Source of the DNA: Clostridia bacterium
GTDB taxonomy: Bacteria > Bacillota > Clostridia > Oscillospirales > CAG-272
Direction of reading: 5' to 3'
Length of the DNA: 64,000 bases
NCBI GenBank assembly: GCA_017621415.1
Contig: JAGATD010000057.1
Location: 1,021 to 65,020, forward strand
The notes beneath the pieces are model-generated. The model was not told the origin of the DNA and searched no databases. It saw only the letters and a program-made list of their open reading frames with translations. The translations under genes were made by a program, and so were the position numbers. Position 1 is the stretch's first letter. Each line of letters starts with the position of its first letter. Positions 10,855 through 52,978 of the stretch are shown in pieces.

Positions 10855-11547
10855 ATGCCCACGTTCGAACAAATAATTACTGCCGAATTTGATTTTGCGG
10901 CAATGAAAGAGCTTATCTTTAAGATATACACACATCCCTATGTCGACAAGGCTGTTCAGTTTGTGGCTGAATTTGTTGAAAGCATTTCTCCGTTTTTGTG
11001 GGCGGGTATACTTTTGGCGCTCGGTTTGGTTTTGTCTAATTTCGGCAAGAAGCTGTTAGCTGTGCCGCTTGTGGTTGGAATTGCCGGCATCGGTTTTCTC
11101 GGAGGTGCGGTTTATCTTGCGCCCCGTATAGCTGCTTTTGTTGACGGTGTCGAATTCATTAAAGCCTTTATATCAATAGACCCTATTGTGGTCGGTATTG
11201 TATTTGCCGCTATCGGCGCAATCCTGTTTCTTCCTATTTATTATTTTGGATATGCCGCAGGATTTGGCTATTTGGCTTATCTCTTCGTTTATCCGTTTTG
11301 CAACACCCTGTTCGAGAGCTCTACCGCTATGATTATAGGTCTTGGCGCTTCCGTTGCAGTAGCTGTTGTTGCTTTCATATTCCGTAAGTGGATAGAGATG
11401 GCGGTTACCTCTGTCGCGGGCGCATACATCGTTATGTGGGCGGTTTATGTCGCATTCCCGCTTCCCGAAATCGTAAATTACATAATTTGGGCAGTCTTTG
11501 CTGTTGAGGGACTTATTGTTCAGATCAAAACACGTCGCAGATATTAA
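10855..11547 (+). CDS. Integral membrane protein of unknown function
   Basis: 230 aa with 6-7 hydrophobic segments and a basic C-terminal tail KTRRRY. Has its own promoter and terminator. Confidence 0.7.
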   Translation: MPTFEQIITAEFDFAAMKELIFKIYTHPYVDKAVQFVAEFVESISPFLWAGILLALGLVLSNFGKKLLAVPLVVGIAGIGFLGGAVYLAPRIAAFVDGVEFIKAFISIDPIVVGIVFAAIGAILFLPIYYFGYAAGFGYLAYLFVYPFCNTLFESSTAMIIGLGASVAVAVVAFIFRKWIEMAVTSVAGAYIVMWAVYVAFPLPEIVNYIIWAVFAVEGLIVQIKTRRRY

Positions 11548-34756: not shown

Positions 34757-34867
34757 TACAGATGGCTGAGATTCACCTACGCGCGCATATTTATAATATA
34801 TTAGGTAGAAAACATGCACTTTGCGAGAGCGGATATTTCTTGCATATGGTGCTTAAAACGCAAAAAC

Positions 34868-34917
34868 AGACGGTAAACAACCATGAAAAATGGCGAAAAC
34901 CGTCTTTTTTGTATTTT
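34868..34917 (+). terminator. Probable mnmA terminator
   Basis: Stem AGACGGT/ACCGTCT (34868-34874/34899-34905) enclosing an inner CCAT/ATGG hairpin, then TTTTTTGTATTTTT. Confidence 0.5.
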
Positions 34918-35208
34918 TCAGAGTGTAGAAAAAAAACTGACGATTTTGTGCATGGTGCACAAACGCGTAAAAAGGGGTTTTGTTACAAAAAACCGCAAAA
35001 ATTAAGTAAATACAATTTACTATAATTTAAAAACGCTCAATATAGCACCGAAAATGTCTAGTTTTAGGTAAAAACCATTTACCTTAGCTTTAAAATCCAA
35101 GCGCAACAAAAGAATTTGTGTAAATAATTGTTTGCAAATCGAAAAAACACTCGTTTTGCTTAAGTTAGAAAGTGAAGCCCGTCACAAGCCGGGTGGGGGA
35201 ATTCGCTC

Positions 35209-35237
35209 TTGACTTCAAAAAAAACTTATGATATAAT
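35209..35237 (+). promoter_or_regulatory. Consensus sigma-A promoter of the 14-kb ABC/exoprotein operon
   Basis: TTGACT (35209-35214), 17 nt, TGaTATAAT (35229-35237). About 66-nt leader with GGAGG 10 nt before ATG 35304. Confidence 0.7.
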
Positions 35238-35303
35238 ACTTGTATATTATAAGGGCATGTGCGCCCTTTTGATATGAAAGTTTAATTTGGAGGAAATCAG
35301 CAC

Positions 35304-38300: not shown

Positions 38301-38876
38301 AGTATTTATAACAGCCTTGTTGTATTTGCTTCTGAAATTGGCGGTCTCTGGCAGTTCGGCACACTTCCCGGTTCGGGCAAGGGTGAGACCTATAACAACG
38401 ATTCTCTTGCAAGCGTAACCGCAACAGTTCTTCTTAACGGTTGCCAGAAGAAGGGTAACGACACTCTTCTTGCGGCATGGCAGTTCGCTCAGTGGCAGAC
38501 CAGCCGTGAGATTCAGGCTAGCTACGGTAACAGCATAGTTGCTCTTATCGGTCCTGCCGCTAAGTACGAGACAGCGAACAAGCTTGCTATAAACGACCTT
38601 TCCTGGACAGCAAGCGAGAAGGCAGCTATCTCTGAGCAGATGGCAAATATGGACGCGATAGTTAACTATCCCGGCTCGTACATTATAGCAAGATATATGA
38701 AGTTTGCATTCCTTGATGCATACAATGACGGCACTCCTCCTCAGGAGGCTATGAAGCGCTATGTTGGTGCTATCAACACAGAGCTTACACGTAAGAGAGC
38801 AGAATTCGGCGACTTCCTCTTCAATGTTGAAGACGATCTTGAAGAAGGCCAGTCTGTTCCTAAGTTAGATCAGTAA
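35304..38876 (+). CDS. Giant extracellular solute-binding protein: signal peptide + two CBM-like beta-sandwich modules + helical linker + family-1 SBP domain
   Basis: 1190 aa. Signal peptide MKKSIFMRVVAMMLTVALMLGAISVTASA with no lipobox cysteine. Two modules carry the pattern AEWRFDVDKPGFYTIEIDYY and AAYKFTVSETGLYKLGARFK (about aa 100-340 and 375-540). The C-terminal 450 aa or so are SBP-like (VSVWLAMGRDQSQIW.., IPMTMSFAMMFYRMDVL.., KTWDELIGAL). Confidence 0.8.
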   Translation: MKKSIFMRVVAMMLTVALMLGAISVTASAAGISDSIGSYKNEKGSSPTLDEMKNLMTTKTYEDYILEKLSGENDPARTQIAINTSSADKFGDNFTNEVKVSDSDEVQASIKGSSANWESFTKEDGEKSWFLPSVNPDGSAGVAEWRFDVDKPGFYTIEIDYYDCIVDADTYIDENGNFVEIKTKSSVSAIERKLRIDGVVPFDEVGSITFDKHWRYDYVTTSDPYEVPASARPFTEIGSYAEYVQIAEGEGAGYYKYVTTTKMEGDKMMQTLTTYKINQDINGNSMAPSAVAVSQWSTYTCKDPSGYSEGALKFYFSNGPHSISLEAIREPVIIKEIRLVPAEAPSIESESSGKMSYSNYIAAYDGVPTINAAPTIIEAEFPDLISDSSVTSTNDNTSAITYPISSKAQLYNVIGENSYSAMGQWAAYKFTVSETGLYKLGARFKQDTLQGMFICRAVKLAGGQYGTVPDAPFDEAYRVRFGYDEEWQSEYMGFYSYEYDSEGNKVLDDNGNPVQNKTEIELYFEKGVEYTLYFECSLGDLKDYIRRVETALDVINECYLRILKRTGAEPDKNQDYSFLDYMPEVLVKLLEQSKELTNVADELEALCGTNGSHIATLDTIARILTLMGSDGGEKIAENMANLKSYLGTLGTWINSSKSSSLMLDSIYVVPADSDENAIPNAKANFFESIWFEISSFIYSFFTDYDKMGLTEETSEGDAAVSVWLAMGRDQSQIWRSMIDATGGFTDTYGKGVALKLVTAGTLLPSILSGKGPDVYLGLSSGEVINYAIRDAIIGISGNAANLTAEQNAVFTNYYYMDANGNEIVREKALTAAEMEAQGLISVSNGYDYATREAIFAPAAMKTLRLCDVAYGIPMTMSFAMMFYRMDVLGNLGVEIPKTWDELIGALPALQASNMTIGVSYVSALDFMIYQMGESMWKYENGDEYDSRWAGAEINLDSNIALEAFERVCSFYTEHSLPVSFDTANRFRTGEMPITVGDYISIYNSLVVFASEIGGLWQFGTLPGSGKGETYNNDSLASVTATVLLNGCQKKGNDTLLAAWQFAQWQTSREIQASYGNSIVALIGPAAKYETANKLAINDLSWTASEKAAISEQMANMDAIVNYPGSYIIARYMKFAFLDAYNDGTPPQEAMKRYVGAINTELTRKRAEFGDFLFNVEDDLEEGQSVPKLDQ

Positions 38877-38888
38877 AGGAGGCCAACC

Positions 38889-39848
38889 ATGTCACAAGCA
38901 GAAACTAAAACAGTTGAGAAAAACAGACCCCTAAGACGTGACGAAATGTCTAAGCTTCAGTGGACCTGGAAGGAAATGAAGAGAAATAAGACGGCCTACT
39001 TTATGCTGTTTCCTTTCCTCATTCTCTTTATAGTATTTACAGTTCTCCCCGTTCTTCTTTCTATGTTCTTCAGTCTGACAGACTTTAATATGCTTCAGAC
39101 TCCCAACATGAAGGGCCTTGATAACTATATCAGGCTCTTCTTGGAGGACGAGATATTCATTCTTGCGATACAGAACACACTTATATTCGCGTGTATAACA
39201 GGTCCTGTATCCTACATTCTTTCGCTCTTGGTTGCTTGGTTCGTAAATGAGCTTCCCCCCAAGATCCGCGCGGTAGTTACTCTGGTATTCTACGCGCCCT
39301 CAATTTCCGGTCAGGTTTATCTGATTTGGAAAACTCTGTTCTCCTCCGACTCTTACGGTTGGGCGAACGCAACGCTTATGGACTTAGGACTTATAACGGC
39401 ACCGATACTCTGGTTTGAGGATGCGGCTTACGTTATGGCGCTTTGTATCGTGGTTGCTCTTTGGACATCCCTCGGTACAGCATTCCTCTCGTTCATCGCG
39501 GGCTTCCAGACCGTTGACCGTTCTATGTATGAGGCGGCTGCCGTTGACGGAATTAAAAACCGTTGGCAGGAGCTGTGGTATATTACACTTCCCACAATGC
39601 GTCCTCAGATGATGTTCGGTGCGGTGCTCGCTATCACAAACTCTTTCGGCTTCGGAGGTGTTGTTACCGCTCTTTGCGGATTCCCGTCGGTTGACTATGC
39701 GGCGCATACAATAATGCACCATCTTGATGACTATGGCGGACAGCGTTACGAGATCGGTTACGCTTCGGCAATAGCGGTTGTGCTCTTTATTATGATGTTT
39801 GCCTCTAACATTCTTGTTAAGAAGGCGCTCTCGAAGGTAGGTGAGTAG
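38889..39848 (+). CDS. Carbohydrate ABC transporter permease (MalF/UgpA-like), pair 1
   Basis: 319 aa, 6 TM. EAA loop YEAAAVDGIKNRWQELWYITLPTMRP. Confidence 0.9.
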   Translation: MSQAETKTVEKNRPLRRDEMSKLQWTWKEMKRNKTAYFMLFPFLILFIVFTVLPVLLSMFFSLTDFNMLQTPNMKGLDNYIRLFLEDEIFILAIQNTLIFACITGPVSYILSLLVAWFVNELPPKIRAVVTLVFYAPSISGQVYLIWKTLFSSDSYGWANATLMDLGLITAPILWFEDAAYVMALCIVVALWTSLGTAFLSFIAGFQTVDRSMYEAAAVDGIKNRWQELWYITLPTMRPQMMFGAVLAITNSFGFGGVVTALCGFPSVDYAAHTIMHHLDDYGGQRYEIGYASAIAVVLFIMMFASNILVKKALSKVGE

Positions 39849-39851
39849 TAT

Positions 39852-40727
39852 ATGGCAAAGAAACTTCGTACCAGAGGACACAGAGTTGTCCTTAACCGTT
39901 CAGCCGGTGGTGACGCAGGTATAACCTTTATGCTCACCATCCTCGGTGTTATAATGTTCTTCCCGATGTACTACGTAGTAATTCAGTCTCTCAAGCCTCT
40001 TGACGAGCTGTTTATGTTCCCCCCCAGGTTCTATGTTATCAATCCTACATTTGATAACTTCTCAGAGCTGTTTACACTTATGAGCGACTCCTGGGTACCA
40101 TTCTCGAGATACATATTTAACACTGTATTCATTACTATCTGCGGTACTTGCGGAAACCTGGTTCTTGCTTCTATGGCGGCATACTCGCTTGCTAAGCTCA
40201 GATTCCCCGGCAGAAACGCAATATTCCAGATGATAGTTATGTCACTTATGTTCCACTCTACTGTTAACCAGGTAACCCACTTCATCATCCTTTCCGCATT
40301 CGGTTGGGTTGATACCTACCTCTCGGTTATTATCCCCTCAATGGCAGGTACCATGGGTCTTTACCTTATGAAGCAGTTTATGGAGTCGTCGGTACCGGAT
40401 ACGGTTCTTGAGTCTGCGCGACTTGACGGCGCAAGCGAATTCAGGACCTTCCTTATCATAGCAATGCCTATGGTTAAGCCCGCGTGGCTGACACTTATGA
40501 TCGAGTGCTTTAAGTCCCTTTGGAACTCGGGAGCATCAATTTATATCCACTCCGAGGAGCTTAAAACCTTTAACTATGCGATTAACCAGATCGTAACAGG
40601 CGGTATTGCCCGTTCGGGCGCCGGCGCCGCAGCGATAGTAATTATGATGATAGTTCCTATCGGTGTATTCGTTCTTAACCAGAGCCAGATCATTGAGACC
40701 ATGGGCTCTTCGGGTATGAAAGACTAA
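39852..40727 (+). CDS. Carbohydrate ABC transporter permease (MalG/UgpE-like), pair 1
   Basis: 291 aa, 6 TM. EAA loop LESARLDGASEFRTFLIIAMPMVKP. 3-nt gap from the previous gene. Confidence 0.9.
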   Translation: MAKKLRTRGHRVVLNRSAGGDAGITFMLTILGVIMFFPMYYVVIQSLKPLDELFMFPPRFYVINPTFDNFSELFTLMSDSWVPFSRYIFNTVFITICGTCGNLVLASMAAYSLAKLRFPGRNAIFQMIVMSLMFHSTVNQVTHFIILSAFGWVDTYLSVIIPSMAGTMGLYLMKQFMESSVPDTVLESARLDGASEFRTFLIIAMPMVKPAWLTLMIECFKSLWNSGASIYIHSEELKTFNYAINQIVTGGIARSGAGAAAIVIMMIVPIGVFVLNQSQIIETMGSSGMKD

Positions 40728-40741
40728 TTAAGGAGGCAGCA

Positions 40742-43735
40742 ATGAAAAATAGATTAGCTAAAATATTGATTCTGTCGCTCGTTGCGTTGTTGCTTTTCGG
40801 CAGCTTCACCTCCTCAGCGTATGAGTCTTATGACACTTATACCTATTCAATAGACGGAAAGCCTCTGGCTTCTCCTCACGCATTTACTCCCGAGCCCGAT
40901 ACTTATGATTCTAAGAGTATGGGACTCCTTGACGGTAACTATTGGCATTACGACTCAACCGGTGATGCTGTTATTTGGCCTCAGAAGGAGGTCAGCGCGG
41001 GATTTGAGTTTGTGTCTCCTCTTACATACAGCATGAAAGAAGACGGCACAGGACTTCTCGTTTCCTCTTACAAGGTTGACGAATCGGTTATCGATACTAT
41101 TGTAAGCATTCGCGAAGCATTCTCTGCGGTATACGGAGATCCTAATTCTAACAGTACTGTTAAAATTACCATACCTGTTGAGGATGTGGTTTACTCCGGT
41201 AACTCCTATGTAGAGCTTGACAATCTTTTGAAGCATGTCAACAGCCTTATTTTCGAAAGGGTTAAGGCTGCAGGTGAGGGTAAAAAGGTTACCTTAGCCG
41301 CAATTGATTATGCTTCGGTTTATCAGTCTGTTTACGATCAGCTCGGTTTTATGAGCGCAAGGGTTGCTATCCCTGAGGAAGTAGACGGTATTCCTGTTGT
41401 GGGAATAGCCGACGGTGCCTTTGCGGTTCCTGCGGTTGACGAATCCTGGTCTGATGTTAAAAAGGAAGTTTGTGAAAAGCTTTATAAGGATGTACTTGCT
41501 CAGATAGTTGGAATTCAGATTCCCGAGAGTGTTAAAACAATCGGCGCTTCTGCATTTGGCGGTACAACAGGTCTTACAACCGTATATTATCTTGGCGAAA
41601 ATGTGGCAGATTGGAACAAGGTTTCCTTTGATAGAAAAACCAATGCGTATTTTGCGAGAGCAAGTGTGTATTGCTATTCCGAATCCGAAAGATTTGGCAA
41701 TCTTGCTCTTGATAAAGCAGGAACGGCAGATATCGTGTCTGACGAGGACGGAAACCTTTATATTGCCGATAAGCCCAACAACAGAATTGTAATTCTTAAG
41801 GCTAATGACCTTAAGGTTATGGGTGTTATAAGCAACTATATTGACGGAAACAATAAGGACAGAGTTCTTAATTCTCCCTCCGGTGTTTATGTAACCAATT
41901 CCAAGCTTATGGTTGACGGTTCAAGCCGCCAGATATATGTTTGCGATACAGGTAACAAGAGCATAGTTGTATTTGATGAAAACTACAATTATATCAGAAC
42001 AATAGAGCAGGCACCTATTGCGGGTATGCTTGACGAGGGTGAGTTTGAGCCCAGCGCCGTTGCGGTTGATAAGTACGGCAGAATATTTGTTGTTTCCAGA
42101 ACCTGTTACAAGGGCATTATGGTTCTTTCAAGCGATGGAACCTTCACCGGATTTATCGGTGCGCAAAAGGTTACCACCGACTTTATGGATCAGATTTGGA
42201 AGAGCTTCCAGACGCTGGAGCAGAAGCAAAACTCTATTCTTCAGCTTCCCGAGCCCTTCAATAACCTGACAGTTGATGAAAACGGATTTGTTTACGCAAC
42301 CATCAGCTTCACAAAAGCTTCAGATCAGACACAGCAGCAATTAGCTCTTAAGTCAAAGCAACCTGCTTACTCTCCTGTTAAAAAGCTTAACTCCATGGGT
42401 GTTGAGATTATGAAGCGTAACGGCTTCTTCGATCCCGGCGGAGAGGTTATTGACACACTTTCTGCACAAAAGCAGGAGGTTTCTAAGATAATCGACGTGG
42501 CTATAGGAGACGAGGGCTCTTGGACAATACTTGACAGCTCAAGGCAGAGAACCTATACATATGACAAAAACGGTAACCTTTTGTTTGCATTTGGTAACAC
42601 CGGAGACCAGCTTGGTAACAATGCGTCTTGTATAGGAATTGCATATCAGCCGGTATATAATGAAGACGAAACAAACTATGAGGACTACAAGTACAATCTT
42701 GTAATGCTTGACAGCTCGGAGGTCGGTTGTTATGTTACTGTGTATAAGCCTACCGAGTATTGCGATATGATCATGAATGCTTTGCATAATGAAAATGACC
42801 ATAAATTCAGCGATACGATTAATTACTGGCAGGACGTTCTGACCCGTAACAACAACTTTGACCTTGCCTATATCGGTATAGGAAAAGCCCTTTACCACCT
42901 TGGTGAGTACGATGAGGCTATGGAGATGCTTTCCAGCGCATACGAGACCGAGTATTATGCTCTCGCATTTGCTGAGGTTCGTAAGGAATTTATTTCCAAG
43001 TTTATGGTTCCTCTTATTGTAGCTGTTCTCGCACTTATCGTGCTGTTCTTCAAGTTCCTTGGCTATGCCAAGAAGAGAAATAAGGCAACATCGCTTAAGG
43101 TTGGTAAAAAGACCTACGGCGAAGAAATGCTTTATGTGTTCCATCTTGTGTTCCATCCCTTCGACGGCTTCTGGGACCTTAAGCATGAAAAGCGCGGATC
43201 GGTCAGAGCGGCATCAACAATTCTCGGTATTACAATTGTAGCCTTCTTCTATCAGGCTATCGGTACCGGATATATGCACAATCCTAAGGGCGACTATTCT
43301 ACCGTATTTGTTCAGATAATCGCGGTAGTGGTTCCCGTTGTTCTTTGGATTGTAGGCAACTGGTGTCTTACTACGCTCTTTGACGGTGAGGGTAGCTTTA
43401 AGGATATTTATATCGCAACCTGCTATTCACTTGCTCCTCTTCCTTTGTTTGTAGTTCTTTCTACAGTGCTTTCAAACGTACTTACTGTTACAGAGGGCTC
43501 AATCCTGACTCTTCTTGTATCTCTCGGATACGTTTGGGTAGGACTTCTTCTGTTCTTCGGTATGGTGGTAACGCACGATTACTCAACCGGTAAGAACGTT
43601 ATCACAACACTCGGTACTATAGTTGCTATGGCGGTTATTATGTTCATTATACTCCTGTTCTCCAGCCTTGTAATGAAGATGGCAACCTTCCTTATCACAC
43701 TGTTTACTGAGATATTTAACCGTATTTTTACTTAG
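40742..43735 (+). CDS. Exported LRR(BspA-like)/NHL beta-propeller/TPR protein with C-terminal Yip1-like polytopic membrane domain
   Basis: 997 aa. Signal peptide. BspA-type LRR segments (IPEEVDGIPVVGIADGAFA, IQIPESVKTIGASAFGG). Repeated NHL-like blades (GNLYIADKPNNRIVIL, QIYVCDTGNKSIVVFD, GRIFVVSRTCYKGIMVL, GFVYATI, GNLLFAFG). TPR-like helix pair (LAYIGIGKALYHLGEYDEAMEML). One TM, then 5 TM preceded by FHPFDGFWDLK. Confidence 0.75.
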   Translation: MKNRLAKILILSLVALLLFGSFTSSAYESYDTYTYSIDGKPLASPHAFTPEPDTYDSKSMGLLDGNYWHYDSTGDAVIWPQKEVSAGFEFVSPLTYSMKEDGTGLLVSSYKVDESVIDTIVSIREAFSAVYGDPNSNSTVKITIPVEDVVYSGNSYVELDNLLKHVNSLIFERVKAAGEGKKVTLAAIDYASVYQSVYDQLGFMSARVAIPEEVDGIPVVGIADGAFAVPAVDESWSDVKKEVCEKLYKDVLAQIVGIQIPESVKTIGASAFGGTTGLTTVYYLGENVADWNKVSFDRKTNAYFARASVYCYSESERFGNLALDKAGTADIVSDEDGNLYIADKPNNRIVILKANDLKVMGVISNYIDGNNKDRVLNSPSGVYVTNSKLMVDGSSRQIYVCDTGNKSIVVFDENYNYIRTIEQAPIAGMLDEGEFEPSAVAVDKYGRIFVVSRTCYKGIMVLSSDGTFTGFIGAQKVTTDFMDQIWKSFQTLEQKQNSILQLPEPFNNLTVDENGFVYATISFTKASDQTQQQLALKSKQPAYSPVKKLNSMGVEIMKRNGFFDPGGEVIDTLSAQKQEVSKIIDVAIGDEGSWTILDSSRQRTYTYDKNGNLLFAFGNTGDQLGNNASCIGIAYQPVYNEDETNYEDYKYNLVMLDSSEVGCYVTVYKPTEYCDMIMNALHNENDHKFSDTINYWQDVLTRNNNFDLAYIGIGKALYHLGEYDEAMEMLSSAYETEYYALAFAEVRKEFISKFMVPLIVAVLALIVLFFKFLGYAKKRNKATSLKVGKKTYGEEMLYVFHLVFHPFDGFWDLKHEKRGSVRAASTILGITIVAFFYQAIGTGYMHNPKGDYSTVFVQIIAVVVPVVLWIVGNWCLTTLFDGEGSFKDIYIATCYSLAPLPLFVVLSTVLSNVLTVTEGSILTLLVSLGYVWVGLLLFFGMVVTHDYSTGKNVITTLGTIVAMAVIMFIILLFSSLVMKMATFLITLFTEIFNRIFT

Positions 43736-43755
43736 TGCGGGAGGTGTAAATTACT

Positions 43756-46700
43756 ATGAAATTTAATAAAATATTGTCATCCGCACTTGTTTTGGTAATG
43801 CTTCTTTCAAGCATTATGGCGGTTATCCCCGTAAGCGCATCGGCAGCTGATAACAAGCAGGTCGTTGTGAATATGGGAGAGGTTGATCCTGCTAAAAACA
43901 GCAGCGATTACCTTGCAAAGTTTGTAAAGGAAGAATACCTCAATTACAGATATTCCACTGCTGAAGAAATGCTTAAGGAAGAGCTTGAAAAGGGTAATCT
44001 TGACTCTGTATCAGCCGGCGGGTATATCCTTTATATCAATAGATACACAGGCTTTGTATTCTATCAGAACACAAAAACCGGTCAGATACTTACAAGTAAT
44101 CCCACCGACCCCGGAACATCTGGCAGCAGCCTTGACTATTCTGTACTCAGCCAGATCGATATCGACTATAAGGACGTTTCGGATTCTTCCAGCATTGTTC
44201 CTCTGACTTATAAGAGCCTTGAGCAGCTTGAGAACGGATTTGCTCTCTCTCTGTCGCCTATCGCAACTCAGCCTGACGGCAGAGCCGGAATTTCTGTCAA
44301 GTACACCTTGGGTGAAAACGCGGCAAATTACCGTGTTCCCAAGTATATCACCGAGGCTGATTTCAGAGACCACATTGTAAATCCTATGTTTAAGAAGATT
44401 GCTGCTGCTGTAGAGCAGTATTGCGGAGATGTAAGCTTTGACAGCGACCTTAGCGATAATGATGATATCTTCTATCAGGGATATTATGACGGCGGTGTAA
44501 TAAACAGAAAGCTTAATGTTATATCTGCAAATGCCGCAGTTTATGCCAGCGCAGCAGGAAAGATCATTATTGACAAGTATGTTAAGGCTATAAACGACGT
44601 GTTCTCGGCTTACGGATACACTTCATCTGCCGCTGCATTGAAGTCAGGCAACCAGACTCTTCTTACCGAGGTTCCCGTTCTTAGAGACGGTGTGAATGTT
44701 TACAGCATCAAGAATAATAACACAACAACATACAAGCTTGCGAACAACGCGCTTGTTGATATTCTTGGTGATGATTATACCAAGGATGACGCAGCTGAGG
44801 ATTTCGCAGCTACCGGATGCCTTAAAAATGAGGATATAAACGTAGCAAGCTTCGTTGTTTCTATCAACTATACTCTTAGTCCTGATGGCGAGCTTTACTA
44901 CGAGATTCCCATGAGCGCTCCTTATTTTGTAAACAATAACCCCAACTTCTCAATTGTTTCCTTGAAGCCTCTCAGATACTTCGGCGCGGGTATTAAAACA
45001 AATGAGGGATACATCTTCTTCCCCGACGGAAGCGGAACTGTTGTAAACTTTGATAAGATCAACACTATTCAGGCAGACTACAACTCAGCAGTTTACGGAA
45101 ATGACTACGGTTATTCTTCTCTTGACCCCACCAGAGCTCACTTTGAGCAGGTAACTATGCCTGTGTTTGGTATAGTTAACGAGGTTAAAGCAAATGCTGC
45201 AACTGCGTCTCTTGAAAATGTAGAAACTATCACCAACGGCTTCTTTGCGATAGTTGAAGAGGGCTCAAGCCTTATGAACCTTTCTTTCAACGGTTCGTCG
45301 CACAAATATATATCTGCGGCAGCGGTATATAAGCCTCACCCCATGGATATCAGAGACCTTTCTGAGACTCTTTCGGCAGGCGCCAGCGGAAAGTATTTTA
45401 TCGTTTCCGAGGCTAAGTATGAGGGTAATTACAAAACCAAGATAGTAATGCTCCGTGATGAAAAGCTTGCAGGATTTGAACCCGCAGCTTATGAGCCCAC
45501 CTATGTAGGTATGGCTAACTGCTATAGGGATTATCTTTTGAACAAAGGTATTATCGGACAAAATAACAATAATACCAAAAATGATATTCCTCTTTACATA
45601 GAGGTTCTTGGAGCTATGGACGTTACTCAGAAGATTCTCTCTTTCCCTGTGGTTATGTCTACTCCTCTCACTACATTTGATAATGTTGCTACAATGTACT
45701 CCGGCTTTGCTGAGTTGGGTGTAAAGAATGTTAACTTCCGTCTTACCGGCTTTGCTAACGGCGGTATGGCTGCAACCTATCCGGTAAAGGCAAGTTGGCA
45801 GAATTCCTTGGGCGGAAAGAAGGGACTCGAGAACCTTGTTGATGAAGCCGAGGAGATTAACGCTAAGAATGACGGCTCAAACTTGGGCTTGTACCCTGAT
45901 TTTGATTTCCTTTATATCCATAATACCGCACTCTTTGACGGTGTAAGCTATAGAGGAACCGTTGCTGTCATGGTTGATAACAGATATGCATCAAAGCAGT
46001 CCTTCAACGCAGTGCTCCAGCTTTACGAATCAATATTCGCAATGGTAGTTTCTCCCGATTCCTATGACGGTCTTTACGATAAGTTTAATAAAGACTACTC
46101 GAAGTACGGCCTTACAGGTCTTTCGGTAGCAACTCTCGGTTCAGAGCTTAACTCGAACTTTGATATCGATAATTCCATCAACCGTGAGTCGGCTCTCGCT
46201 TATACAAAGAGCCTTCTCGGAAGAATTTCTGAAGAGTATTCTGTTATGACAGACATTGGTAATGTTTACGCAATGAGATATGCTGACCATGTGCTTAACG
46301 CGCCTGTCGACTCCAGCCATTACAAATATTCTTCATATACCGTTCCGTTCTACGGTATGGTATTCCACAGCTATGTTAATTACGCAGGTTCTCCCATCAA
46401 CTATTCCGGTTCTCCTGACTACAATATTCTTCGCGCTATTGAAAACGGAGCGAACCTCCAGTACATTCTTTGCTATGAAAACACTAACTATCTTAAGGCA
46501 GATGCTACTCTTTCTAAGTATTACGGTGTTGACTACAAGAACTGGAAGGATATAATCGTTAAGCAGTACAATCAGCTTAATGCAGCTATAGGCGATGTTC
46601 AGGATAACATTATAACCGATCACAGACCTCTTATAGCTGAGAGAGTTGTGGACAGATACGAAATGTATTCTAATTACTCGGTTCTTATTAACGAATTTGT

Positions 46701-47304
46701 TGAACATGCAGAAACGAAGTTTGAGGCAGAAATTTCAGCTATCGCAGCCGATCTTCGTGCAAACGGAGGATTTGAGGGTAAGACCGGTCTTTGGGTTAAT
46801 ATCGACATTAACTCTGTTGAAGCGGGAATACTTAAAGCGCTTAACATAACAACAGCACAGGCTAAATCCTATAATCTTAATACCTCTGAGCTTAAGCTCT
46901 TCGGTATTGACGGTGAGAGTCAGTCGCTTTATAACGTAATTCTCAGAGTTGCAAGACTGTTCGTAGAGAAGTTTGAGGCAGCTTATCCCGAAGATGCTAA
47001 CAGCTATAAGATCAATCTTTCTGCTGAAACGGTTGAGTACAAGTCCAAGTTCAAGTTTGAAACAACATCTTATGCTGTTGATAAGAACTATGAGACCACA
47101 TCTTACACCTGCAGCAACAACAATGTTGTTATGGTAACTTATACCGATGCTGATACAGGCGCCGCGACAATATTCTTTATCAACTTTAACACATATGATG
47201 TAAAGCTTAAGCTTGATACAGAATTCTATCCCGGAATTGAAAAGCTTGTAGATGACAAGGGTTACTTTACCGTTGAAGCAACGGATTATGTAAAAATTAA
47301 GTAA
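43756..47304 (+). CDS. Large secreted protein of unknown function (1182 aa)
   Basis: Signal peptide MKFNKILSSALVLVMLLSSIMAVIPVSASA. No lipobox, no LPXTG, no C-terminal TM. No catalytic motif I can recognise. From memory it resembles proteins annotated as DUF5696, but this is unverified. Confidence 0.7.
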   Translation: MKFNKILSSALVLVMLLSSIMAVIPVSASAADNKQVVVNMGEVDPAKNSSDYLAKFVKEEYLNYRYSTAEEMLKEELEKGNLDSVSAGGYILYINRYTGFVFYQNTKTGQILTSNPTDPGTSGSSLDYSVLSQIDIDYKDVSDSSSIVPLTYKSLEQLENGFALSLSPIATQPDGRAGISVKYTLGENAANYRVPKYITEADFRDHIVNPMFKKIAAAVEQYCGDVSFDSDLSDNDDIFYQGYYDGGVINRKLNVISANAAVYASAAGKIIIDKYVKAINDVFSAYGYTSSAAALKSGNQTLLTEVPVLRDGVNVYSIKNNNTTTYKLANNALVDILGDDYTKDDAAEDFAATGCLKNEDINVASFVVSINYTLSPDGELYYEIPMSAPYFVNNNPNFSIVSLKPLRYFGAGIKTNEGYIFFPDGSGTVVNFDKINTIQADYNSAVYGNDYGYSSLDPTRAHFEQVTMPVFGIVNEVKANAATASLENVETITNGFFAIVEEGSSLMNLSFNGSSHKYISAAAVYKPHPMDIRDLSETLSAGASGKYFIVSEAKYEGNYKTKIVMLRDEKLAGFEPAAYEPTYVGMANCYRDYLLNKGIIGQNNNNTKNDIPLYIEVLGAMDVTQKILSFPVVMSTPLTTFDNVATMYSGFAELGVKNVNFRLTGFANGGMAATYPVKASWQNSLGGKKGLENLVDEAEEINAKNDGSNLGLYPDFDFLYIHNTALFDGVSYRGTVAVMVDNRYASKQSFNAVLQLYESIFAMVVSPDSYDGLYDKFNKDYSKYGLTGLSVATLGSELNSNFDIDNSINRESALAYTKSLLGRISEEYSVMTDIGNVYAMRYADHVLNAPVDSSHYKYSSYTVPFYGMVFHSYVNYAGSPINYSGSPDYNILRAIENGANLQYILCYENTNYLKADATLSKYYGVDYKNWKDIIVKQYNQLNAAIGDVQDNIITDHRPLIAERVVDRYEMYSNYSVLINEFVEHAETKFEAEISAIAADLRANGGFEGKTGLWVNIDINSVEAGILKALNITTAQAKSYNLNTSELKLFGIDGESQSLYNVILRVARLFVEKFEAAYPEDANSYKINLSAETVEYKSKFKFETTSYAVDKNYETTSYTCSNNNVVMVTYTDADTGAATIFFINFNTYDVKLKLDTEFYPGIEKLVDDKGYFTVEATDYVKIK

Positions 47305-47318
47305 GGAGGGACGCTAAA

Positions 47319-48305
47319 ATGAGTAATAATGTAAAATTAACTACAGAAAAAAAGTCGCCTTTAGATTTTTTAAAGCATATATTTAGGCGCAGAGCGTCTC
47401 TTGATGCAAGAAAGGCAAGGGCGGGCTACGTATTCGTGCTCCCCTTCCTCCTCGGTATAGTTCTGATATACCTTCCTATACTTATCGACTCCCTTTGGTT
47501 CAGCTTCAGCCAGATTTCGGCAACGAGTGACGGTACAGGCAGACTTAACATTGTGTCTGTTGGTTTTGAAAACTATGTTAAGCCCTTTAACACACCGGGA
47601 TTTACCGAGGCGCTTCTCGCAGGACTTCAGCAGCTTTTGTTTGAGGTTCCCGCAATTATCGTATTCTCTCTGTTTATTGCGGTCGTTCTTAACCAAAAAA
47701 TGCTCGGTAGAGCTATGTTCCGTGCGATATTCTTCGTTCCTGTTATTATATCCACAGGTATTATGATGGACTTCTCCGCAGGCGGTCAGAATGATATGTC
47801 AGGCGCGGTAGGCGGAGAAACAAACTCCGGTACAGGCGAAGGCGGAGCAAGCGAAATTATTTCGGTTCTTGACGTTCAGCAGCTGTTTGCAAGCATGAAA
47901 ATAGGCGGAGAGCTTGTTACATACGTTGTAGGAATAGTAAATAACGTGTATAACATTATCAACTACTCCGGTGTTCAGATGCTTATTTTCCTTGCCGGTC
48001 TTCAGTCTATATCTCCTTCGATATATGAAGCCTGCCGTATAGACGGCGCTACAGGTTGGGAGACATTCTGGAAGATTACATTCCCTATGATATCTCCTAT
48101 GATTCTTGTAAATGCTGTATACACGGTTATCGACTCCTTTACCAGAACCAACAACCCGGCGATGCGATTTATTCAAAATGCCTTTGCTCTGCAGCCTGAA
48201 ATGTCAACAGCGATGTATTGGATGTACTTCCTGATTATTGCTTTGATAATAGTAGTTGTTGCGGGAATTGCATCATCCTTCGTGTTCTATCAGAGAAAGG
48301 ATTAA
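47319..48305 (+). CDS. Carbohydrate ABC transporter permease (MalF-like), pair 2
   Basis: 328 aa. EAA loop YEACRIDGATGWETFWKITFPMISP. Unusual Gly/Ser/Glu-rich insert AGGQNDMSGAVGGETNSGTGEGGASE (about nt 47769-47859). Confidence 0.88.
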   Translation: MSNNVKLTTEKKSPLDFLKHIFRRRASLDARKARAGYVFVLPFLLGIVLIYLPILIDSLWFSFSQISATSDGTGRLNIVSVGFENYVKPFNTPGFTEALLAGLQQLLFEVPAIIVFSLFIAVVLNQKMLGRAMFRAIFFVPVIISTGIMMDFSAGGQNDMSGAVGGETNSGTGEGGASEIISVLDVQQLFASMKIGGELVTYVVGIVNNVYNIINYSGVQMLIFLAGLQSISPSIYEACRIDGATGWETFWKITFPMISPMILVNAVYTVIDSFTRTNNPAMRFIQNAFALQPEMSTAMYWMYFLIIALIIVVVAGIASSFVFYQRKD

Positions 48306-48318
48306 GGAGGTGAGCTTA

Positions 48319-49407
48319 ATGGAATCAACAAAAACAACAATAACAAAAGAAACAAAAAATAAGATTCAGGTTGATTATGAAGGTAAGCTCTCCACCAAAG
48401 AGCGTTTGCTTAACAAAATCAAGGCATCCAACACCTGGATAACGGCAATCGTAAATGTGTTTAAGTTTATACTGATGCTTGGTGTATCTTTCGTAATTAT
48501 TTATCCCTTTATCACCAAGATAGCAGGTTCATTTATGTCGCCTAACGACCTGGCCGACGTTACAGTATCTCTTATTCCCAGAGATTTTAACATAGACCAG
48601 TATAAGTACATAATCCAGGATAACGGATATTTCTTCCACATAGATGACCTTGGACAACAGCACCTTGGCGCATTCTTCCACACACTCTTCCTTTCGCTTA
48701 TCTGCGCGGCAATTCAGACTATGGTAGCCTGTCTTGTAGGATACGGTATTGCCAAGTTCAAGTTTAAGGGTAATGTTGCTGTAATGGTTGCCGTTGTGGT
48801 AACAATGATTATTCCTCACAGCGCGCTTCAGCTCGCTTTCAGACAGCACTTTATTTCCTTTGATATTGCGCATGTAATGTCTACGGGAAATATGGGTATT
48901 ATCCAGACTTTAACAGGCGGCAAGAATATCGAGCTGATAAACACCTATTGGCCGTTTATCATAATGTCGCTTGGCGGTATAGCCTTTAAGAACGGTCTTT
49001 ATATCTATATGATGCGTCAGTTCTTTAAGGGTGTTCCCGATGAGCTTGAGGAGTCTGCGTATGTTGACGGCTCGGGTACATTCCGTACCTTTGTTCAGAT
49101 CATACTTCCTCTCTCCGTGCCTATGATGATAACAATATTCCTGTTCTCATTCTCATGGCAGTGGACAGACCAGTTCTATACAAATCTGTTCTTCGAGGGC
49201 GCAGACGCACCTTGGACAATGCCTAAGATCGTATCGCTTCCTGCTTCTCTTGAAATTCTCTATACAGGTCACCCTGTACTCAAAATGTTTACTACAGTAG
49301 TAGAGAACACAGCCAGCCTTATGATCATACTTCCTCTCGTTATTATGTACCTCTTCTGCCAGAAGTACCTGGTACAGGGTATCGAGCGTTCGGGTCTCGT
49401 AGGCTAA
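48319..49407 (+). CDS. Carbohydrate ABC transporter permease (MalG-like), pair 2
   Basis: 362 aa. Start moved to ATG 48319 (MESTKTT) behind AAGGAGGTG. EAA loop EESAYVDGSGTFRTFVQIILPLSVP. Long polar N-terminal extension. Confidence 0.88.
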   Translation: MESTKTTITKETKNKIQVDYEGKLSTKERLLNKIKASNTWITAIVNVFKFILMLGVSFVIIYPFITKIAGSFMSPNDLADVTVSLIPRDFNIDQYKYIIQDNGYFFHIDDLGQQHLGAFFHTLFLSLICAAIQTMVACLVGYGIAKFKFKGNVAVMVAVVVTMIIPHSALQLAFRQHFISFDIAHVMSTGNMGIIQTLTGGKNIELINTYWPFIIMSLGGIAFKNGLYIYMMRQFFKGVPDELEESAYVDGSGTFRTFVQIILPLSVPMMITIFLFSFSWQWTDQFYTNLFFEGADAPWTMPKIVSLPASLEILYTGHPVLKMFTTVVENTASLMIILPLVIMYLFCQKYLVQGIERSGLVG

Positions 49408-49544: not shown

Positions 49545-49575
49545 AGGAGAGCTCTCTTGAGGGCTCTCCTTTTTT
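49545..49575 (+). terminator. Rho-independent terminator of the 14-kb operon
   Basis: Stem AGGAGAGC/GCTCTCCT (49545-49552/49563-49570), then TTTTT. Confidence 0.75.
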
Positions 49576-49744: not shown

Positions 49745-50563
49745 GTGAGAACATCATTTAATATTGAAAAGCTTTCGGCATTTTTAAAAAGCTTTTATAC
49801 CGTTACGGGCATAAAAATTTCTGTTTTTGACGATGAGTTTAACCACATAATCGAATATCCCGCGCCTATGATAGAATACTGTTCTTTAATTCGTCGCACC
49901 GAGCAGGGGACTGAAGGCTGTCGTAACTGCGATATTGCCGCATTTAGAGAAGCAAAGCGCAGAAGAGGACTTTATATTTATACCTGCCATGCGGGAATGA
50001 CAGAGGTTGTTTCTCCGATAATGCTAAATGACGGAATTTTGGGTTATGTAATTTTATCTCATATGTTGCCAAAGGAGACTTTCGATTCAGCAGTTGAATA
50101 TGCCCTGGGCAGGGCAGAGAGCTACGGAGTCAGCAGATGCGAGGCGCTTCCCGCCATAGAAAAAATGACCCCTACAGATTATGAAAAAATTGAGGCTGCA
50201 TCAAGACTCCTTGATGCAATCACAACCTATTTAAGAGTGACAAATTGGGTAAGCTGGCGCAACGACGATCTTGCATATTCTATTTCAAAATATATAGATG
50301 AAAATTTAGGCTCACACTTGAATACTGAAAACCTATGCAACGTGTTTTATATTTCCAGAACAAAGCTTCACCAAATATCAACCACTGCATACGGAGTAAG
50401 CATTACAAAATACATTCTTGATAAGAGAATGAAAAAGGCAAGAGAACTTCTTCGTATGGGAAAATCGGTAGAGAGTGTTGCCGAGGAGGTAGGATTTTCA
50501 ACTGCAAATTATTTTAGCAAGGTCTTTCACCGCGAGTGCGGTATACTCCCAAGCAAATTCTGA
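49745..50563 (+). CDS. AraC-family transcriptional regulator with N-terminal PocR-type sensory domain
   Basis: 272 aa. GTG start behind GGAGGG. The PocR-like Cys-containing region is CSLIRRTEQGTEGCRNCD..YTCHAGMTEVVSPI. C-terminal AraC HTH (VAEEVGFSTANYFSKVFHRECG). Confidence 0.85.
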   Translation: MRTSFNIEKLSAFLKSFYTVTGIKISVFDDEFNHIIEYPAPMIEYCSLIRRTEQGTEGCRNCDIAAFREAKRRRGLYIYTCHAGMTEVVSPIMLNDGILGYVILSHMLPKETFDSAVEYALGRAESYGVSRCEALPAIEKMTPTDYEKIEAASRLLDAITTYLRVTNWVSWRNDDLAYSISKYIDENLGSHLNTENLCNVFYISRTKLHQISTTAYGVSITKYILDKRMKKARELLRMGKSVESVAEEVGFSTANYFSKVFHRECGILPSKF

Positions 50564-50619
50564 GTTAATGCAAAAATGTTCAATAATAAATAAATATGTA
50601 CAGTGTTTTTAATCACCGG

Positions 50620-50648
50620 TTGACACAATAAGTTTTTTTTGATACCAT
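50620..50648 (+). promoter_or_regulatory. Candidate promoter of the isomerase/epimerase pair
   Basis: TTGACA (50620-50625), 17 nt, TGaTACCAT (50640-50648). Confidence 0.45.
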
Positions 50649-50682
50649 AAAATTAACATTGATATATTAAAGGAGTGTTATA

Positions 50683-52080
50683 ATGAAAGAAAAAATAACC
50701 TTTGCCCTTTTGTTTGCTAACCGTGGCTTCTTTCCGGGCGATGTAATAGCAGATGCGAGACGCGAGATGTGTGAGGCAGTAAAAAATGCCGGCTTCGAGT
50801 ATATTTGTATGGAGGAGTCTGCTACAAGATACGGAGCTGTTGAGACAATTGCCGAGGGTAAAAAATATGCTGATTTTCTTGAGCAAAATCGCGGCAAATA
50901 CGATGGTGTTATTGTTTCTTTGCCCAATTTCGGAGACGAAAACGGTATTTCGGTTGCGCTTAAAAATGCCGGTGTGCCAATACTTGTTCAAGCATACCCC
51001 GACGAGATTGGCAAAATGGATTTTGCGAGACGCAGAGATGCCCTTTGCGGAAAGTTTGCAGTTTGCAATATCTTAAGACAAATGAATATTCCCTATACTC
51101 TTACCGAAAAGTTTGTGATTAAACCCGATACCGCAGAGTTTGCGGCTGAACTTTATAAATTTGGAGCAATTTGCCGAACAGTCAAGGGGATGAAGAACTT
51201 TAATATAGGAGCTATAGGAGCAAGAACCACAGCCTTTAAGACCGTTAGGGTAGATGAGATGGCTCTTGCAGCAAAAGGAATTAATGTTGAAACAATAGAT
51301 TTAAGTGAGCTGTTTGCGAGAGTACGCACTGTGAGCGACGAGGATATGAATAATGCAAAGGAGCGAATTCTCGGAATAACAAGATTTGCAGGCTACCCTG
51401 AAGAAAAGCTTAATACAATGGCAAAGGTGCAGGTGGCTGTTGAGTCGCTTGTGCGTGATTATGATATGGATGCGGTGGCTATTCGCTGCTGGAACGAGTT
51501 TGAAACCGAGCTTGGAATAGCGCCTTGCACAACTTTGAGCCTTCTTAACGATATGGGAATTGCCGCTGCCTGTGAGGTCGATGTTGAAAATGCGGTAATG
51601 ATGAGAGCTCTTGCCCTTGCTGCTGAGTCTGCATCCACACTTCTCGATTTTAACAACAATTACGGTGAAGAAGAGGACAAGGCAATAATGTTCCACTGCG
51701 GTCCTGTGCCTAGCTCTATGTGTGAGGGAAAGGGGCAGGTTTGCGAGCACCTGATGTTTAAAAAGACCTATGGCGATGGCTCGGGTGTGGGTGTAAATAA
51801 AACCGAAATGAAGAGCGGAAATATAACAATAGGCAGTGTTAAAACTGAGGGCGGAAAAATATACGCATTCCTTACCGATGCAAAGTTTACCGACGACCCG
51901 ATTGAAAAGGAATTCTTCGGCTCGGGCAAGGTTGTTAAAAAGGACGGAATAAACGAGGTTGCAAATTATATGGCAACCTATGGCTACAAGCACCATCTGG
52001 CAGTAACCTTCGGCAACTTTAAGTCTTGCATTGCTGAGGCTCTTGGAAAATATCTCGGATATGAGGTTGAAACAATTTAA
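50683..52080 (+). CDS. L-fucose/L-arabinose isomerase-family protein (sugar aldose-ketose isomerase, substrate unknown)
   Basis: 465 aa. The length and the N-terminal pattern (FALLFANRGFFPG), together with the central/C-terminal regions, resemble the short fucose-isomerase family (COG2407-like). Recognised by eye only. Confidence 0.75.
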   Translation: MKEKITFALLFANRGFFPGDVIADARREMCEAVKNAGFEYICMEESATRYGAVETIAEGKKYADFLEQNRGKYDGVIVSLPNFGDENGISVALKNAGVPILVQAYPDEIGKMDFARRRDALCGKFAVCNILRQMNIPYTLTEKFVIKPDTAEFAAELYKFGAICRTVKGMKNFNIGAIGARTTAFKTVRVDEMALAAKGINVETIDLSELFARVRTVSDEDMNNAKERILGITRFAGYPEEKLNTMAKVQVAVESLVRDYDMDAVAIRCWNEFETELGIAPCTTLSLLNDMGIAAACEVDVENAVMMRALALAAESASTLLDFNNNYGEEEDKAIMFHCGPVPSSMCEGKGQVCEHLMFKKTYGDGSGVGVNKTEMKSGNITIGSVKTEGGKIYAFLTDAKFTDDPIEKEFFGSGKVVKKDGINEVANYMATYGYKHHLAVTFGNFKSCIAEALGKYLGYEVETI

Positions 52081-52096
52081 ATTAAAGGAGAAACTT

Positions 52097-52978
52097 ATGA
52101 ACAAGCTTGGAATTTTTATGAACTTTTGGGAAAAAAGCTGGGATGCAGACCATATAAAGTACATAAATAAGGCAGCGGATATAGGATTTGATATCCTGGA
52201 GTTTCAGGCACAGGCTCTGCTCGATATGTCAAAGGATAGAATGCAGGATGTTCGCTCTGCTGCTGAGGCAAGAGGAATTGAGCTGACATATAGTCTAGGT
52301 CTTGACCAAAAATATGATATTTCATCCAAGGACGAGGTAGTAAGGCTCGGCGGTATAGATTATCTTAAGAGGATAGTTGAGCGAGTAAACTTTATGGGCG
52401 GCAGCATTATCTCGGGTGTAAGCTATGCAGGTTGGGGAATTCCAGAGGGACTAACCGATGACAAGAGCGTATTTTGGGACAATAGTGTAAATAGCATGCG
52501 TATTGTGCTTAAGACCGCAGAGGACTACGGCGTTACCTATTGCGTTGAGGCGGTAAACCGCTTTGAGGGCATTCTTATAAACACCGCAGAGCAAGCGCTT
52601 CGCTATGTAAATGAGTTTGACAGTAATAATATAGGAGTTCTTCTTGATACCTATCATATGAATATAGAGGAGAGGTCTATAGGTGATGCAATTCGCCTTG
52701 TGGGCGATAAGCTGTACGGCTTCCACACCGGTGAAAACAACCGTACGCCTCCCGGCAGAGGACACCTTAACTGGGACGAGATTTTCTCGGCTCTTTCGGA
52801 GGTTAATTACAAGGGTCGCATAGTCTCTGAACCCTTCGTTATGACAGGGGGCGAGGTCGGCAGAGCCATCTACACCTGGCGAAACCTTCTTCCCGATATT
52901 TCGGAAGCAGCCCTCGATAATGAGGCAAAGCTCCTTCTCCAATTTGAAAAATCTATGATTAATAAATACGCAAAATAA
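52097..52978 (+). CDS. Ketose 3-epimerase (D-psicose/D-tagatose 3-epimerase family, xylose-isomerase-like TIM barrel)
   Basis: 293 aa. Start at ATG 52097 behind AAAGGAG. Strong resemblance to D-psicose 3-epimerase blocks: EAVNRFE, LLDTYHMNIEE.SIGDAIR, GFHTGENNR.PPGRGH..W, and EPFV..GG. Confidence 0.85.
   Translation: MNKLGIFMNFWEKSWDADHIKYINKAADIGFDILEFQAQALLDMSKDRMQDVRSAAEARGIELTYSLGLDQKYDISSKDEVVRLGGIDYLKRIVERVNFMGGSIISGVSYAGWGIPEGLTDDKSVFWDNSVNSMRIVLKTAEDYGVTYCVEAVNRFEGILINTAEQALRYVNEFDSNNIGVLLDTYHMNIEERSIGDAIRLVGDKLYGFHTGENNRTPPGRGHLNWDEIFSALSEVNYKGRIVSEPFVMTGGEVGRAIYTWRNLLPDISEAALDNEAKLLLQFEKSMINKYAK

Follow-up and report, generated by a model that had tools for sequence, protein, structure and literature searches.

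The stretch of DNA analysed here, a window of 64,000 nucleotides on contig JAGATD010000057.1 of a Clostridia bacterium, carries an operon of seven genes (35304-49407) whose products are a giant secreted solute-binding protein (SBP), four permeases of ATP-binding cassette (ABC) importers, a membrane protein with Yip1 and NHL domains, and, from the fifth gene, a secreted protein of 1182 residues whose predicted architecture recalls that of glycosidases acting on alpha-linked sugars (Table 1). The 1182-residue protein is a member of the Pfam family DUF5696 (PF18952): the match extends over residues 359-979 with E=1.3e-126 and 424 bits against a cut-off of 25.6 bits, and covers positions 20-594 of the 612 of the model, so that the gathering threshold is exceeded over most of its length. 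A first-pass annotation made from the letters alone had suggested the DUF5696 label, and rightly so. Its description of the protein as having no recognisable motif holds with regard to characterised families, but not with regard to Pfam, where the protein clearly belongs to a catalogued family.

The gene is a real open reading frame (ORF), starting with an ATG that is preceded by a GGAGGTG ribosome-binding site. At the N-terminus, the product displays a Sec signal peptide with its n-, h- and c-regions in succession (MKFNK, ILSSALVLVMLLSSIMAVIPV and SASA, followed by AD after the cleavage site). The hydrophobic core of 21 residues is the sole hydrophobic segment of the protein in a Kyte-Doolittle scan, and the signal peptide is kept among the homologues with the consensus MKxxxILSSALVxVML...AxAA. 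In the AlphaFold2 (AF2) model of the protein, this region is a helix (residues 3-23) followed by a disordered segment (24-31). There is no lipobox because the first 40 residues contain no cysteine, and the LPXTG sorting signal is absent from the scanned sequence. The basic n-region, hydrophobic core, AxA site and lack of a lipobox cysteine are together those of a Sec-secreted substrate of signal peptidase I. On secretion, anchoring and the low-cysteine, Asn/Tyr/Ser-rich composition (Cys 0.4%, Asn 8.3%, Tyr 7.7%, Ser 8.5%), the first-pass annotation had thus read the sequence correctly.

DUF5696 is a widespread family. An exhaustive search with a hidden Markov model (HMM) returned 4766 representative clusters (clusters at 50% identity) at E<=0.001, 2119 of them at E<=1e-30, and relatives are encoded in at least 570 species-level genomes. 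The best 80 of these genomes are nearly all metagenome-assembled genomes labelled Clostridia, Eubacteriales, Oscillospiraceae or Ruminococcus; they come from ruminant, other animal and human guts and represent nearly exclusively uncultured Clostridia. The 134 homologues of about 1200 residues all contain PF18952 as their single Pfam domain, as do the more distant relatives that were checked. The identity among the listed homologues is 37-42%, and the name that the homologues bear in their sources is 'hypothetical protein'. The Pfam model spans the second half of the N-terminal domain and the barrel described below, and leaves out a conserved N-terminal hairpin, two helical insertions and the C-terminal sandwich. 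In agreement with the first-pass annotation, no glycoside hydrolase (GH), lyase, esterase or protease model was found by the Pfam scan, in which DUF5696 stands alone, and NCBIfam gave zero matches. A weak Pfam hint of an alpha-amylase C-terminal domain falls in the C-terminal beta-sandwich (E=0.036). Among 41 diverse members searched against Pfam at E<=5, no other family recurred, GH families included, and no GH129 sequence signature was seen. Sequence and profile searches of the PDB with the single protein and with alignments of 55 and 41 sequences produced nothing meaningful, and the matches to coiled-coil, interferon and beta-trefoil proteins were dismissed as spurious.

The AF2 model, built on the 55-sequence alignment, has a mean predicted local distance difference test score (pLDDT) of 84.5 and a predicted TM-score of 0.81. 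Assignment of its secondary structure by DSSP delineates an N-terminal beta-sandwich interrupted by a large helical insertion, a central (beta/alpha)8 barrel, and a C-terminal beta-sandwich split by a second helical insertion (967-1076, about 110 residues). The barrel strands are predicted at residues 613-618, 658-664, 709-715, 788-794, 829-833, 845-847, 875-877 and 900-906, with a 50-residue insertion after the third one. The central stretch in which the first-pass annotation had noticed alternating strands and helices, and suspected a cryptic (beta/alpha)-barrel, falls precisely in this region: LYIEVLG (613-619), NVNFRLTGFANGGM (658-671) and GLYPDFDFLYI (711-721) are strands 1, 2 and 3 of the modelled barrel, separated by helices 641-653 and 687-704. 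The Foldseek comparison that the same annotation had proposed yielded 159 PDB matches at E<=0.001; the 50 listed ones are all TIM-barrel glycosidases active on alpha-linked sugars, with about 10% identity. The best match is ZGAL_3152 (DagB, or ZgGH129; 5opq, E=4e-21, TM-score on target 0.63), followed by NagBb, an alpha-N-acetylgalactosaminidase of GH129 (5wzr, E=3e-17, TM-score on target 0.69). A GH101 structure comes next (5a59, E=5e-10, TM-score on target 0.26), together with GH31 YicI, a GH31 cycloalternan-forming enzyme and members of GH36, GH97 and GH13 (E of 1e-8 to 1e-6, TM-score on target 0.26-0.49). On the evidence of this model, the glycosidases of GH129, GH101 and GH31 are remotely related to the core of the DUF5696 protein, in which a (beta/alpha)8 barrel lies between two beta-sandwiches.

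The closest structural counterpart, ZGAL_3152, is a 'GH129-like' exo-alpha-1,3-(3,6-anhydro)-D-galactosidase (5opq, 8rzk) with the same order of three domains as the DUF5696 model, namely a distorted beta-sandwich (35-299), a TIM barrel (300-620) and an Ig-like domain (621-693), with helices that jut out of the N-terminal domain (PMC5698469). However, the query is 490 residues longer, carries two inserted helical segments (about 150 and 110 residues), and is only about 11-14% identical; its equivalents of D486, E517 and E531 are tentative only and not strictly conserved. The genomic contexts also differ, ZGAL_3152 belonging to a carrageenan locus of a marine Bacteroidota and DUF5696 to an ABC cassette of gut Clostridia. 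NagBb of Bifidobacterium bifidum (5wzn, 5wzr) gives the highest TM-score on target and is a gut bacterial enzyme acting on alpha-linked sugars, but its identity to the query is about 10%; it has approximately 630 residues and is intracellular. The GH101 endo-alpha-N-acetylgalactosaminidases and GH31 enzymes (YicI, cycloalternan-forming enzyme) have the overall three-domain architecture in common with the DUF5696 model, and some of these relatives are extracellular Gram-positive enzymes tied to ABC import, but their structural scores are far weaker than those of GH129 (E of 5e-10 to 1e-7, TM-score on target 0.26-0.38).

CAZy families are defined by sequence similarity and, by this criterion, the DUF5696 protein lies outside GH129, GH101 and GH31, although it shares their architecture, including the succession of beta-sandwich, (beta/alpha)8 barrel and beta-sandwich that is typical of GH129. 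No PDB sequence or profile match to the GH129 structures 5wzn, 5opq and 8rzg was obtained; for GH101, neither Pfam nor PDB sequence searches gave a match, and the likeness is structural only. As for GH31, its signature motifs are absent, Pfam reports no GH31 match, and the alignment with Escherichia coli YicI by hhalign has a probability of 0.07%. As regards the new enzyme family proposed by the first-pass annotation, no characterised CAZy family accounts for the protein by sequence, but Pfam has already catalogued DUF5696 as a domain of unknown function, so that it would be new solely as an enzyme family.

A finer comparison was made with ZgGH129-like proteins. The sequence of ZGAL_3152 was rebuilt from a machine-read supplementary alignment figure and from PDB alignments; a homologue search seeded with this sequence gave fragments only, and six full-length relatives were taken from marine metagenome loci, for a total of seven sequences with ZGAL_3152. 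The hhalign comparison of the DUF5696 profile with their alignment had a probability below 1% and inconsistent registers. In an unfiltered HMM search of the seven sequences with the DUF5696 profile, the first hairpin of the N-terminal domain was aligned repeatedly, as a weak match of query residues 82-117 (GYILYINRYTGFVFYQNTKTGQILTSNPTD) to residues 38-73 of ZGAL_3152. A second weak anchor, found in one sequence only, pairs the barrel-opening helix of the query (TYVGMANCYRDYLLNKG) with DYVDMAKVYQKEAKARG of ZGAL_3152, the region within which the published barrel starts at Tyr300 (PMC5698469). The anchor scores were reached by 0/500, 0/500, 1/500 and 17/500 shuffles, and both anchors are co-linear with the structural match. 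They lend weak support to a true remote homology with the ZgGH129-like family, as distinct from membership of it.

In GH129 enzymes, the nucleophile is an aspartate that ends barrel strand 4 (D435 in NagBb, D486 in ZGAL_3152), and it works with a carboxylate acid/base. Residues were assigned between GH129 and DUF5696 manually, and thus tentatively, from their position along the barrel and from motif resemblance. In this scheme, D486 of ZGAL_3152 is paired with the strand-4 loop TLGSE797LNSNFD803 of the query, VNGTE517HG with VMTD833IGN, and FDMFE531G with NAPVD852SS. A nucleophile and acid/base of the GH129 type would tentatively fall at E797/D803 in the strand-4 loop, D833 at the end of strand 5 and D852 after strand 6, and the query itself is acidic at all four positions. 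Of the 239 family barrels, 86% share D803, 69% share D833 and 90% share D852, while 74% have Asp or Glu at position 797. The best-conserved barrel acids, besides D852, are E896 (239/239), D741 (236/239), which belongs to the DNRY motif in the insertion that follows strand 3, E616 in strand 1 (235/239), D717 at the end of strand 3 (227/239) and D728 (224/239). E896 is probably structural, as it sits at the bottom of the barrel beside H871. The conservation mapping suggested in the first-pass annotation reveals several near-invariant acids, the best conserved of which lie elsewhere than the positions tentatively assigned to GH129-type catalysis.

Conserved polar and aromatic residues concentrate in the loops that follow the barrel strands. 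They include E616, D717-F718, D741-N742-R743-Y744, N799-S800-F802 and R810, and further along the chain G835-N836-Y838, D852-S853-S854, N882, N909 and K914. In the N-terminal domain, the motif P423-D424-G425-x-G427 is invariant across the family, and D424, D450 and D531 are invariant in the 41-sequence alignment. In ZGAL_3152, the catalytic residue D202 comes from the partner subunit, where it sits in a helix of the N-domain (PMC5698469), which provides a precedent for a catalytic residue contributed by this domain. As it stands in the model, the DUF5696 protein combines a glycosidase-like fold with a conserved polar pocket, in which a canonical catalytic dyad would be putative. As a separate observation, the segment YIFFPDGSG (residues 419-427, window 45010-45036) resembles by eye YIFPMNGGRF of ZGAL_3152, which sits just upstream of D202.

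The operon that contains the DUF5696 gene has the components of a carbohydrate uptake transporter 1 (CUT1)-type ABC sugar importer, i.e. a MalE-like SBP and MalF/MalG-like permeases with BPD_transp_1 domains. P1 and P3 are 25% identical and P2 and P4 27% identical, which defines two MalF/MalG-like pairs for a single recognisable binding protein. For P4, the listed ORF begins with a TTG at 48256 and overlaps P3 by 50 nt, but the true start is likely the ATG at 48319, which is preceded by AAGGAGGTG. Gene order and strand are identical in 84/84 related loci from uncultured gut Clostridia (L001-L004 and L006-L085); the cassette is complete in 63 of them, the remainder being cut by contig ends. Two permease genes also directly follow the gene of a distant DUF5696 member of 983 residues. 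In all 84 loci, the cassette is devoid of a gene for an ATPase, a regulator or a cytoplasmic glycosidase; in CUT1 systems, the ATPase is often a shared one whose gene lies elsewhere. No CAZyme was found among the other window ORFs that were scanned, and none recurs downstream of the cassette in 78 loci, where only housekeeping genes and unrelated transporters are present. Judging from its modelled fold, the DUF5696 protein is the only enzyme-like component of the cassette.

The giant SBP is about three times the usual size of such proteins. Its homologues match SBP_bac_1/SBP_bac_8 at the C-terminal residues ~800-1100, and its AF2 model (pLDDT 75) comprises, in the N-terminal two thirds, beta-rich domains and long helices (with a helical region of ~120 residues at 541-657), followed by a MalE-like C-terminal domain. 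This last domain matches oligosaccharide SBPs with a TM-score on target of 0.73-0.79, among which are binders of sophoro-oligosaccharides, cyclo/maltodextrins and cycloisomaltooligosaccharides, and MalE itself. The protein has a signal peptide and no lipobox, which is odd for a Gram-positive SBP, and its identity among the listed homologues (50-57%) is higher than that of DUF5696 (37-42%). A hidden enzyme in this protein was considered and rejected: its 50 listed Foldseek matches, which align over ~460-500 columns, are almost all MalE-type SBPs or maltose-binding protein fusions and include no glycosidase, and the N-terminal domains are beta-sandwich-like and helical in the model.

The fourth gene lies between the first permease pair and the DUF5696 gene in 84/84 loci. 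Its product matches Yip1 in Pfam (E=2.6e-14, residues 801-969), as well as NHL and TPR, and its hydrophobic segments (1-27 and 748-989) correspond to a signal peptide and a C-terminal multi-pass domain that border an extracellular region of ~720 residues containing the NHL repeats and TPR. Since homologues in the four loci that were looked up have only 717-748 residues compared with 997 here, the copy of the window contains extra extracellular sequence. YknW is a Yip1-domain membrane protein that forms a subunit of the four-component ABC transporter YknWXYZ of Bacillus (PMC4887032). As both proteins have a Yip1 domain and are encoded with an ABC transporter, YknW offers a precedent for a role as accessory subunit; nevertheless, YknWXYZ serves to export a peptide toxin, and YknW lacks the extracellular NHL/TPR region of ~720 residues. 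A literature search for the combination of Yip1, permease and glycoside hydrolase found no paper.

Taken together, we consider it moderately probable that the DUF5696 protein is a Sec-secreted GH129/GH101/GH31-like glycosidase or transglycosylase, likely acting on alpha-linkages, which feeds a dedicated ABC importer. In the mechanism that we propose, the protein would be exported by Sec with cleavage of its signal peptide and, once outside the cell, would cleave or rearrange a glycan, probably alpha-linked, into oligosaccharides. These products may be captured by the giant MalE-like SBP of the same operon and imported by the CUT1-type pairs P1/P2 and P3/P4 with energy supplied by an ATPase encoded elsewhere, while the Yip1/NHL protein would probably hold the extracellular components at the membrane. 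The first-pass annotation had suggested that the protein could be the missing depolymerase of the locus. It is indeed the only enzyme-like protein of the cassette, but the term depolymerase is not specifically supported, because the proteins nearest to it in structure mostly act in exo mode or liberate small units, transglycosylases being also among them.

Several observations weigh against this enzymatic proposal. Acidic residues occupy positions 797, 803, 833 and 852 in only 74%, 86%, 77% and 94% of the 239 family barrels, respectively, and no compensation between acidic positions 797 and 803 was detected in these 239 members. Invariant residues are more frequent on the catalytic face of the barrel than on the other one (22/96 versus 12/85), but as a trend only (p=0.18). 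The Pfam, PDB and hhalign searches link DUF5696 to no GH family by sequence or profile, and five very large relatives (1491-2545 residues) contain only DUF5696 in Pfam, with no carbohydrate-binding module or other informative domain that would hint at the substrate. Finally, a search of the accessible literature for DUF5696 and PF18952 found no paper mentioning the family.

The incomplete conservation of the canonical catalytic positions is what would be expected if the protein were a non-catalytic, glycosidase-derived glycan receptor, in which the fold and the pocket are kept and the chemistry is lost, and which would act as the substrate-capture partner of the P3/P4 pair. This explanation, which we regard as unlikely, would also suit the gene arrangement: P3/P4 have no SBP gene of their own, and the DUF5696 gene always immediately precedes a permease pair, where an SBP gene usually stands, in the 84 loci and for the 983-residue relative. 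Hydrophilic stretches separate membrane segments in P3 (~156-252, i.e. ~100 residues) and in P4 (~196-277, numbered from the TTG start); reminiscent of the MalF P2 loop that contacts MalE, they may provide a docking surface to a large partner, which such a receptor would be. On the other hand, a single SBP can supply several translocators, and E616, D717, D741 and, in the close subgroup, D852 are nearly invariant, as for an active site. Moreover, we know of no ABC importer that uses a TIM-barrel protein as its binding protein.

If the protein is instead catalytic, it could be specialised in transfer. An extracellular transglycosylase, comparable to the GH31 cycloalternan-forming enzymes, would turn a common glycan into a special oligosaccharide, perhaps cyclic or unusually linked, whose uptake is reserved for the SBP and permeases of this cassette. 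Foldseek places the cycloalternan-forming enzyme of Listeria (5i0d, 5f7u, E ~1e-8) among its matches, the closest folds of the SBP include binders of cycloisomaltooligosaccharides, cyclo/maltodextrins and beta-1,2-gluco-oligosaccharides, and the cassette encodes no cytoplasmic glycosidase. We nonetheless hold this specialisation to be rather improbable, given that the best fold matches are GH129 hydrolases, that the Foldseek ranking of SBPs is not substrate-specific, and that the sequence offers nothing to tell transfer from hydrolysis.

Returning to the glycosidase that feeds an importer, the cassette has several traits in common with the CUT1 (MalEFG-like) polysaccharide-utilisation loci of Gram-positive bacteria: a MalE-like domain, MalF/MalG-like pairs, an enzyme-like protein outside the cell and an operon that lacks an ATPase gene. 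It differs from them by two permease pairs per SBP, an SBP of about three times the usual size without lipobox, an obligatory Yip1/NHL protein, and the lack of a regulator and of a cytoplasmic glycosidase. It would be an undescribed variant of Gram-positive glycan-uptake loci. In a bolder version, to which we attach a low probability, DUF5696 would found a new GH or transglycosylase family of distant GH129 kinship, which hands its product to its own permease pair as the front end of a surface complex organised by the Yip1/NHL protein and the giant SBP. Such a hand-off to an importer, by an enzyme in place of a classical binding protein, would amount to an undescribed glycan-capture machine across at least 570 species-level genomes.

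The fold assignment and the invariant importer cassette turn DUF5696 into a candidate that can be tested as a new family of carbohydrate-active enzymes, and the cassette suggests a distinctive system of glycan uptake in a section of the gut microbiota that is poorly understood. Should DUF5696 be active, the structural class would be a known one but the GH family new. CAZyme annotation of these genomes, where the cassette now reads as transporters and hypothetical proteins, would then gain a missing entry, and the glycan niche of the organisms that carry it might be revealed.

Table 1. Features of the DUF5696 cassette, with positions in the 64,000-nucleotide window
Feature	Position	Strand	Basis or remark
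Promoter-like site (TTGACT, 17 nt, TATAAT, extended -10 TG)	35209..35237	+	11/12 consensus matches; consensus match only
Gene 1, giant secreted solute-binding protein, 1190 aa	35304..38876	+	SBP_bac_1/SBP_bac_8 matches in homologues; AF2 and Foldseek
Gene 2, ABC importer permease P1, MalF-like	38889..39848	+	BPD_transp_1
Gene 3, ABC importer permease P2, MalG-like	39852..40727	+	BPD_transp_1
Gene 4, Yip1/NHL membrane protein, 997 aa	40742..43735	+	Pfam Yip1, NHL, TPR
Gene 5, secreted DUF5696 protein, 1182 aa	43756..47304	+	Pfam DUF5696
Gene 5, Sec signal peptide, residues 1-30	43756..43845	+	predicted cleavage between ASA and AD
Gene 5, N-terminal beta-sandwich, residues ~82-199 and 365-566	43999..45453	+	DSSP on AF2 model
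Gene 5, helical insertion of ~150 residues in N-terminal beta-sandwich, residues 200-351	44353..44808	+	DSSP on AF2 model
Gene 5, predicted (beta/alpha)8 barrel, residues ~583-950	45502..46605	+	AF2 model and Foldseek
Gene 5, C-terminal beta-sandwich, residues 952-963 and 1084-1181	46609..47301	+	AF2 model
Gene 6, permease P3, MalF-like	47319..48305	+	BPD_transp_1
Gene 7, permease P4, MalG-like	48319..49407	+	BPD_transp_1
Terminator-like hairpin closing the operon (11-bp stem, then T-run)	49545..49570	+	consensus match only

The flanks of the cassette are made of housekeeping genes: iscS-nifU-mnmA precede it, and shikimate genes or unrelated transporters come after it. In the window, three genes are intercalated between the cassette and the shikimate operon (49745-52978), which encode a PocR/AraC-type regulator, a 465-residue protein whose C-terminal domain is of the L-fucose-isomerase type, and a TIM-barrel protein resembling xylose isomerase. 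The two isomerase-like genes have no homologue in the 84 related loci, and an AraC homologue is present in two of them on the opposite strand, so that the segment looks like a lineage-specific insertion and not a part of the cassette. This setting bears on a last, very improbable explanation, according to which the cassette trims and recycles the own wall-associated or capsular glycan of the cell and not food: such a role would explain a vertical inheritance among housekeeping genes, as the cassette directly follows mnmA in about half of the related loci, lies in several between iscS-nifU-mnmA and the shikimate operon, and has no associated regulator or catabolic enzyme apart from the insertion unique to the window, but the synteny may just reflect the shared ancestry of close gut lineages, nutrient uptake is the typical task of MalE-like oligosaccharide SBPs, and no wall-biosynthesis genes are linked.

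In one related locus (L004, 16490-21100), the cassette is followed by the gene of a 1226-residue protein with weak DUF4962 and heparinase II/III-like matches, and then by an ABC ATPase gene; this single polysaccharide-lyase-like neighbour is a faint hint of the substrate. Elsewhere in the window, an ORF of 230 residues with no Pfam match at E<=1e-5 (10855-11547) is located between a CNNM/CorC-type transporter gene and transketolase genes. An Rfam scan of the whole window, which would cover a possible leader RNA, gave no match. The promoter-like and terminator-like sites flank the operon on either side, and the former lies within the gap of 547 nt between mnmA and the first gene of the cassette (34757-35303), an intergenic region that is AT-rich.

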